From: a virus
DNA: 15,390 nt
Strand: one strand, 5' to 3'
UHGV virus genome: UHGV-1727288
Shown here: positions 4,403 through 5,707 of the stretch, piece after piece
Position numbering within the stretch: position 1 is the stretch's first letter
Layout: each line of letters begins with the position of its first letter
Position numbers and translations under genes: made by a program
Notes under the pieces: generated by a model
What the model was told of the DNA's origin: nothing
Seen by the model: the letters and a program-made list of their open reading frames with translations, nothing else
Databases searched by the model: none

Positions 4403-4535
4403 AAGATCTAGCATGCTGCTGAGAACTGATGAGAACAATAAAAGAGTGTTTATCTAAGGTTGACACAACACTCCATTTGAAGTGAATATAATGATTACTT
4501 AACTGGCAAAAAAACATCCTCACTAATTGGAGCCA
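4403..4535. promoter_or_regulatory. AT-rich divergent control region: expected late promoter for V (minus strand) plus promoter and RBS for the toxSAS cargo gene (plus strand)
   Basis: Sharp drop in GC relative to flanking genes. TTGACA at 4460-4465 and TATAAT at 4487-4492, but with a 21-nt spacer (non-canonical). GGAG at 4529-4532 upstream of candidate starts. In P2 the V operon has its own Ogr-dependent late promoter at this position. Confidence 0.4.
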
Positions 4536-5627
4536 ATGGATACACGCATGTCAGACATTCTAATTACTTATGATGAACGGAAAGATAAATTTGAGTCCTA
4601 TGCCCTTACTCTTAAATCGTTATTAACCACGTTAATTCGCAATGAAAAAATTTCAATTCACTCACTTGAATCAAGAGTTAAAACAAAAAAAAGCCTTGAA
4701 GGTAAGATTAATAAAAAGGGAAAATACAAGTCTATAGATGATATTACTGATATCGTTGGTATCAGGATCATCACACATTATGCTGATGATGTTGATAAGA
4801 TAGCTGCTATAGTTGAAAAGGAGTTCACCATTGACCAAGAGAACTCTATTGATAAAAGAACCTCAATTGCGCCTGATAAATTTGGTTACCTATCACTTCA
4901 TTATATAGTAACTTTAAACTCAACCAGAACAAACTTAAAAGAATATGAAGTATATAAAAACATCAAAGCCGAATTACAAATACGATCAATCCTTCAGCAT
5001 GCCTGGGCGGAGATTGAACACGACATTGGTTATAAGTCGGCCACAGGACTGCCTAATGAAATAAGAAGATACTTTTCACGCTTAGCTGGTCTTTTAGAAA
5101 TGGCCGATGATGAATTTATTAAAATCAGAAAAAAGATTTCTGAACGGCAGAAAGAGGTTGCAAAAGAACTAGAGCAAGGAACTAGTGATTCAGTTTTAGA
5201 TATTTTCACTTTGGATGAATTCTTAAACACAAGTCGAGTTATGAGTGAACTTTCAGAAGAGATAAAAGAAAAAACAGGAATCACAGTACATGGCCGATAC
5301 AAGGATAAAGATTTGGGATACCTACTAAATGGTTTAAACCTAGCCAACATAACTACAATAGAACAACTCAATCAAAAACTCTCACAAATGAAAAAGCAGA
5401 TCGTAGATAGAATATTCTGCTTCGGAGAACCATTTATTAATTATTGCAGAGAAACCACCATGCCAAAAGAAGCTCTTTTGAGTTATTTATGTCAAATTAT
5501 CGTTGCGTTTCAAAACTCACCTTCGTTAGAATCTGAATTTAATAACAAAGCAGGTTTAAATCTGAAAAACAGCGATATCTCCGATTTTTTCTCGAATATA
5601 AGAGAAAACATAAGCACACAACCTTAG
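4536..5627 (+). CDS. RelA/SpoT-synthetase-domain protein; candidate fused toxSAS toxin-antitoxin (CapRel-like) anti-phage defense protein
   Basis: The N-terminal half has the synthetase motifs of RelA/SpoT nucleotidyltransferases: [61 protein letters not shown]. The ~160-aa C-terminal extension has no motif I recognise. No adjacent small antitoxin ORF. AT-rich and on the opposite strand to the flanking phage genes. Start is ambiguous: TTG 4527, ATG 4536 or ATG 4548. Confidence 0.8.
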   Translation: [363 protein letters not shown]

Positions 5628-5656
5628 CTTTAGTTTTAACGTATTCTAACAGAAGA

Positions 5657-5682
5657 CTGCTGCCGGTAAGCACCGGCAGCAG
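5657..5682. terminator. Hairpin between convergent genes (toxSAS gene and S), likely terminator
   Basis: Perfect inverted repeat CTGCTGCCGGT-aagc-ACCGGCAGCAG (11-bp stem, 4-nt loop), 30 nt after the toxSAS stop and 26 nt beyond the S stop. The minus-strand side is followed by a moderately T-rich tract (GTCTTCTGTT); the plus-strand side is not. Confidence 0.55.
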
Positions 5683-5707
5683 CAATGAGGTGTCGGGAAT
5701 GACACAA

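Follow-up and report, generated by a model that had tools for sequence, protein, structure and literature searches.

A P2-like prophage of E. coli was found to carry a gene for a RelA/SpoT-type synthetase. As an accessory ('moron') gene, it lies in the gap that separates the late operons O and V. The window, i.e., the whole stretch of DNA that was analyzed, comprises 15,390 nucleotides. Based on its sequence, the encoded protein is assigned to the RelA/SpoT homologue (RSH) superfamily and to its synthetase-only class (SAS), and the gene can be regarded as a credible candidate for a one-gene anti-phage system. We consider it somewhat probable that the protein is a single-gene sensor-effector guarding the lysogen by abortive infection, with growth being stopped by pyrophosphate transfer. 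The accessory status of the gene follows from its GC content of 33% against 55–60% in the flanks, its rarity, the mostly empty slots in related prophages and the precedent of orf30 in P2.

Organization of the Locus

The cargo gene lies between the phage genes V and S and is directed oppositely to both. The features of the locus are as follows:

3767..4402, − strand: gpV baseplate spike gene (Phage_base_V and Phage_spike), first gene of the V late operon and left border of the slot
4445..4472, − strand: probable Ogr (activator) binding region at the V late promoter, flanked by V and the cargo gene
4460..4492, + strand: candidate cargo-gene promoter (TTGACA at 4460–4465, TATAAT at 4487–4492), proposed from reading the sequence
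4548..5627, + strand: CDS of the RelA/SpoT-domain protein, 359 aa, stop codon included (WP_089584432.1, 'GTP pyrophosphokinase')
4548..5051, + strand: synthetase (SYNTH) domain, aa 1–168, with an alpha/beta nucleotidyltransferase fold (Pfam RelA_SpoT, residue alignment, Foldseek)
5052..5177, + strand: long helix of about 40 residues, aa 169–210, joining both domains
5178..5624, + strand: all-helical C-terminal domain, aa 211–359, with a family-specific, hypervariable sequence
5656..5683, no strand assigned: 12-bp GC-rich hairpin, found by a terminator scan in the space where the cargo gene and S converge
5708..6160, − strand: gpS tail completion gene (RefSeq), last gene of the O late operon and right border of the slot

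V is annotated by RefSeq as 'phage baseplate assembly protein V' in a 100% identical locus, and its two Pfam domains were found in V of a 98% identical orthologous locus. The 223-aa ORF with a TTG start listed at this place corresponds to the 211-aa V protein extended upstream. Phage_tail_S is present in S of orthologous loci.

The initial annotation had described an AT-rich 1.1-kb ORF between V and S on the opposite strand, and this description proved accurate. The GC content of the cargo gene (+ strand) is 33.4% versus 59.9% for V and 55.0% for S (both on the − strand), and the GC profile is 0.31–0.37 over positions 4350–5700 versus 0.55–0.64 in the flanks. The coordinates 4403–5707 given there cover the entire V–S intergenic interval but not the CDS as such, which occupies 4548..5627. 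In the ORF list, the frame extends over 4527..5627 (+ strand) with a TTG start; the ATG at 4548 is the RefSeq start and is conserved among the orthologues, as is the N-terminal start MS(D/E)IL. Since the gaps beside the cargo CDS are only about 145 bp toward V and 80 bp toward S, the V–S interval holds no partner ORF.

The region 4445..4472 aligns with the site annotated in P2 as 'activator binding site; activation of pV promoter', and the TGTTG core (4466–4470) of the predicted PV activator site is invariant in P2 and five prophages. The TTGACA of the candidate cargo promoter overlaps this site on the opposite strand. A consensus promoter scan revealed no canonical promoter for the cargo gene; the candidate was missed because its spacing of 21 bp is non-canonical. 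On the other side of the gene, the P2 annotation contains a terminator at a place equivalent to the hairpin, just past S. The hairpin is the terminator of the O operon and probably ends the cargo transcript as well. An Rfam search of the whole window gave no match.

Domain Architecture of the Cargo Protein

In the Pfam search, RelA_SpoT (PF04607) matched aa 46–169 of the 363-aa form of the protein with E = 1.9e-21 and 76.9 bits against a cut-off of 27, which agrees with the standalone RelA/SpoT synthetase proposed earlier. Neither a further Pfam domain nor an HD hydrolase domain was found in the cargo protein. With this E value, and with a 1.1-kb ORF being improbable in DNA of 33% GC, the ORF and its domain are far beyond chance. 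The AF2 model (pLDDT 90) consists of a SYNTH domain (residues 1–168), a helix (170–210) and a C-terminal domain (219–356). As had been supposed, the 359-aa ORF encodes one polypeptide that carries an additional C-terminal domain.

All three synthetase motifs quoted in the initial annotation ([45 protein letters not shown]) were recovered in the translation. Twelve residues are invariant in 46 homologues, namely R43, K45, S49, K53, D68, R73, R104, Y114 (G-loop), H118, E142, Q144 and R146. Their aligned counterparts in B. subtilis SAS1 are, in the same order, R46, K48, S52, K56, D72, R77, R105, Y116, H120, E139, Q141 and R143. The catalytic, ATP-binding, Mg2+ and G-loop residues of the cargo protein are all intact, and from this alignment the synthetase module looks complete and catalytically competent.

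In sequence as in structure, the cargo protein matched RelQ/SAS1 (YjbM) and RelP/SAS2 (YwaC) best, along about 200 residues and with values of 1e-15 in phmmer and 1e-18 in the profile search, and the Foldseek search with the model likewise placed RelQ/RelP nearest (E 3e-10, TM 0.79). Identity to these enzymes is about 25–29%, with the ATP-binding, Mg2+ and G-loop residues in common. The phmmer alignments to 2BE3 and 5F2V extend to residues 206–210, and the linker helix aligns with the C-terminal helix of RelQ/RelP. Unlike RelQ and RelP, single-domain proteins of about 200–230 aa encoded by core genes, the cargo protein is prophage-borne and has an extra C-terminal domain of 150 aa. The helix at aa 169–210 is also a breakpoint, past which sister proteins have an unrelated C-terminus.

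The two halves of the protein diverge unequally. Between genera, the identity is 57–77% for the N-terminal half, 42–83% for the flanking phage proteins and 21–48% for the C-terminal half. The enzymatic half thus keeps pace with the flanking phage genes, and the C-terminal half changes much faster. Weak constraint alone could be an alternative cause of this rapid C-terminal divergence. The C-terminal domain showed no resemblance to a known sensor or antitoxin, and a BFVD search with it gave no match. Its use as a promiscuous module on other effectors was considered and rejected: the long matches, inspected for the best 150 of 989 clusters, all had the SYNTH domain followed by the C-terminal domain. 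Nine of the ten short matches checked were N-terminally truncated copies, and the tenth had no Pfam match. In two giant proteins, the match was confined to a stretch of 33 residues, which was matched repeatedly.

Distribution and Genomic Contexts

In the P2-like prophages of E. coli, Klebsiella, Cronobacter, Serratia and Pantoea, the gene invariably has the S terminator on one side and the V promoter on the other, in one orientation, and its low GC content (33–36%) is kept in all five genera. It was found in 14 of 5426 complete E. coli genomes, with the neighboring S gene being present in about 1470; this corresponds to about 1% of the E. coli P2-like prophages. Of four V–S slots sampled, three were empty, and one contained an orf30-like gene. 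According to the P2 annotation, the nonessential orf30 occupies the identical slot, from the O-operon terminator after S to the PV activator site, and is directed oppositely to the late genes. Together with old, tin and Z/fun, it is counted among the lysogenic-conversion genes of P2. The borders V and S and the orf30 slot support the earlier description of the gene as prophage cargo in the P2 late region. Kinship between the cargo protein and Orf30 was rejected (BLASTP E 0.98), and no Pfam domain was found in Orf30. The same prophage carries an Hp1/2/3 set, as annotated by PADLOC, in its main hotspot.

The family is large, with about 1000 clusters at 50% identity, and occurs in at least 578 species from many phyla. 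All-against-all clustering of the neighbors in 80 species-level loci revealed no conserved neighbor. The largest neighbor cluster, generic ABC ATPases, was found in 7 of the 80 loci, and the 122 nearest neighbors were spread over 112 Pfam families. No hidden partner gene was found in the ORF listing of the gaps, in 12 annotated contexts or by this clustering, and the claim that no small partner ORF is adjacent stands. The conserved adjacent antitoxin gene by which the bicistronic toxSAS (FaRel, FaRel2, PhRel and PhRel2) are defined was likewise absent in the 80 loci.

Some family members were found in defense-related surroundings. One shares an island in Bacillus with HsdR, McrBC, Abi_C and RES, others adjoin AAA_15 or SMC ATPases in Pseudomonas islands, and one, in a Shewanella prophage, has a CI-type repressor as its neighbor. 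A related synthetase module with a different C-terminus is the sole cargo of a 3.5-kb plasmid, and another is situated directly downstream of a NACHT protein. It is likely that these related modules are effectors. A single-gene defense candidate of PADLOC, PDC-S33, matches the synthetase and linker of the cargo protein (E 1e-16, HMM positions 48–237 of 349). Its C-terminal third was unmatched in four of the five proteins tested and partly matched, to position 279 of 349, in P0098; PDC-S33 is therefore a sister family and not the same one. A literature search found no paper mentioning this family of a synthetase with a C-terminal domain or its accessions.

Comparison with Known Systems and Alternative Explanations

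The initial annotation had proposed a fused toxSAS of the CapRel type. CapRelSJ46 (PDB 7ZTB, 9ERV) is likewise a single-gene, prophage-borne protein of about 360–370 aa, with an N-terminal synthetase and a more variable C-terminal region. By this analogy, the two proteins may have in common the concept of one protein as both sensor and effector. CapRel homologues, which provide a precedent for synthetase-based immunity, also combine a conserved enzymatic half with a variable C-terminal half (PMC9712102). If the cargo protein worked like CapRel, it would be a monomeric fused toxin–antitoxin with an ATP site that is obstructed in cis by the C-terminal domain. Binding of a phage structural protein, e.g., the major capsid protein, to this domain would lift the block, tRNA 3′ ends would be pyrophosphorylated and translation would stop. 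The single polypeptide, the absent partner gene, the prophage location, the unequal conservation of the halves, and the G-loop tyrosine and ATP-site arginines, which are in place, are consistent with this mechanism. However, the sequence match to CapRelSJ46 is marginal (phmmer E 0.21, profile 1.6e-3) and limited to about 100–150 core residues, and the structure comparison contradicted the proposed kinship: the C-terminal fold of CapRelSJ46 is a pseudo-zinc-finger with YxxY anchors, whereas that of the cargo protein is all-helical, and both the pseudo-zinc-finger and the YxxY motif are absent from it. The synthetase is closer to the nucleotide-using RelQ/RelP and retains K103-R104 before the G-loop, the inferred acceptor-phosphate site of alarmone synthetases; its N-terminal helix is not notably basic, and the net charge of the SYNTH domain is +1. 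Of the earlier proposal, the one-ORF layout holds, but the synthetase is nearest RelQ/RelP, and the C-terminal domain is not of the ATphRel/ATcapRel type. The defense role put forward there is plausible, but the capsid trigger and the tRNA target gained no specific support. Judging from these matches, the cargo protein falls outside the known CapRel family, and a CapRel-like mechanism appears rather unlikely. No SJ46-type phage was found among the tblastn matches. Based on the published description, the closest architectural analogue is Pag1B (GRel) of the PANGU system, with the same order of synthetase, helical linker and C-terminal domain. Pag1B is reported to be non-toxic alone, to be tetrameric and to produce pppGpp, and PANGU requires a cognate, co-evolving, YejK-like NAP, Pag1A, encoded bicistronically (bioRxiv 10.64898/2026.04.06.716658). 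A cargo protein of this kind would form an inactive tetramer until its C-terminal domain is bound by a NAP that phage nucleases have freed from the chromosome, and the product would be pppGpp. The alignment of the linker with the RelQ/RelP oligomerization helix, the mildly acidic C-terminal domain (net charge −5, pI 4.9) and the closest structures, which produce (p)ppGpp, fit such a scheme. Nevertheless, no YejK-like NAP gene was found in the window or in the 12 annotated contexts, and none recurs among the 80 loci. With none encoded nearby, the part of the NAP would fall to YejK of the host, which is at odds with the dependence of PANGU on its cognate Pag1A. In addition, the C-terminal charge ranges from +8 to −16 over the family, so that the domain is not consistently acidic and fits poorly with a conserved DNA mimic, and the orthologue of the cargo protein in S88 was assigned to divRel, not to capRel or gRel, in the 2011 RSH table. 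We consider a PANGU-like system quite improbable.

Apart from these immune mechanisms, the gene could serve lysogenic conversion or encode a physiological alarmone synthetase, in which the C-terminal domain is regulatory or oligomerizing and (p)ppGpp is tuned for stress tolerance, persistence or prophage induction. It counts against a defense role that, by sequence, the synthetase is nearest to the non-toxic housekeeping enzymes RelQ/RelP and not to any characterized toxin. In a raw tally of 70 species-level loci outside Enterobacterales, the nearest neighbors were mostly housekeeping genes and in a minority defense genes. The presence of the gene in several Desulfosporosinus species could reflect vertical inheritance and a role in physiology, and an antitoxin is absent. 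On the other hand, the gene is sporadic and tied to mobile elements, its C-terminus is hypervariable, and some members lie in defense islands or in moron positions of prophages. Moreover, E. coli already has RelA and SpoT, and the protein scores only 73.7 bits with the NCBIfam equivalog model GTPPhKinYjbM, far below the cut-off of 320. A non-immune role therefore seems to us a minor possibility. The rarity of the gene in E. coli might also suggest a decaying or inactive remnant without function, but the reading frame of 359 aa has remained intact within AT-rich DNA, the catalytic residues do not vary from phylum to phylum, the slot is held over five genera and the N-terminal half is under purifying selection, so the probability of such a remnant is negligible.

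Proposed Mechanism

Starting from the observed domain identity, intact active site, slot, lack of a partner gene and pairing of a conserved effector with a variable C-terminus, we infer the toxicity, autoinhibition, trigger, substrate and defense role of the sensor-effector as follows. The cargo gene would be read in the lysogen from its own promoter, on the strand opposite to the late genes. The enzyme would be silenced by the C-terminal domain, which may either fold onto it or trap it as an inactive oligomer. Once released by a cue that stems from the phage or from the infection, the enzyme would pyrophosphorylate an acceptor, with ATP as the donor. GTP/GDP or ATP/ADP is the most probable acceptor, with (p)ppGpp or (p)ppApp as the product, and the tRNA 3′ end is less likely. 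By either route, the product would halt growth and phage production. The lysogen would thus be protected against other phages, and the prophage would be protected with it.

Two designs of synthetase-based immunity have been described so far. CapRel is cis-autoinhibited, capsid-sensing and tRNA-targeting (PMC9712102), and PANGU is NAP-activated and pppGpp-making (bioRxiv 10.64898/2026.04.06.716658). It is tentatively suggested, at somewhat less than even confidence, that the cargo gene represents a third, undescribed architecture. It would be self-sufficient, with a RelQ/RelP-like enzyme gated by a novel helical sensor and with neither a CapRel antitoxin domain nor a NAP, and would occupy one slot in at least five enterobacterial genera. 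In this architecture, the low GC content possibly serves H-NS silencing, and the hypervariable C-terminal domain would read a new infection cue.

Biological Significance

If the proposed function is correct, the combination of a widespread, complete RelQ/RelP-like enzyme and a C-terminal domain that is unrelated and evolves fast would add another immunity design. It would also offer a tractable one-gene model for the silencing of a potentially lethal nucleotide enzyme and for the cue that releases it. The alleles from five genera form a natural series for domain swaps. Studies of defense hotspots in P2 have so far centered on the Q–A (old/tin) and Z/fun loci, and the S/V (orf30) gap of P2-like phages now emerges as a cargo site. 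If the protein is a physiological alarmone synthetase instead, the finding would point to a prophage-driven rewiring of the stringent response.

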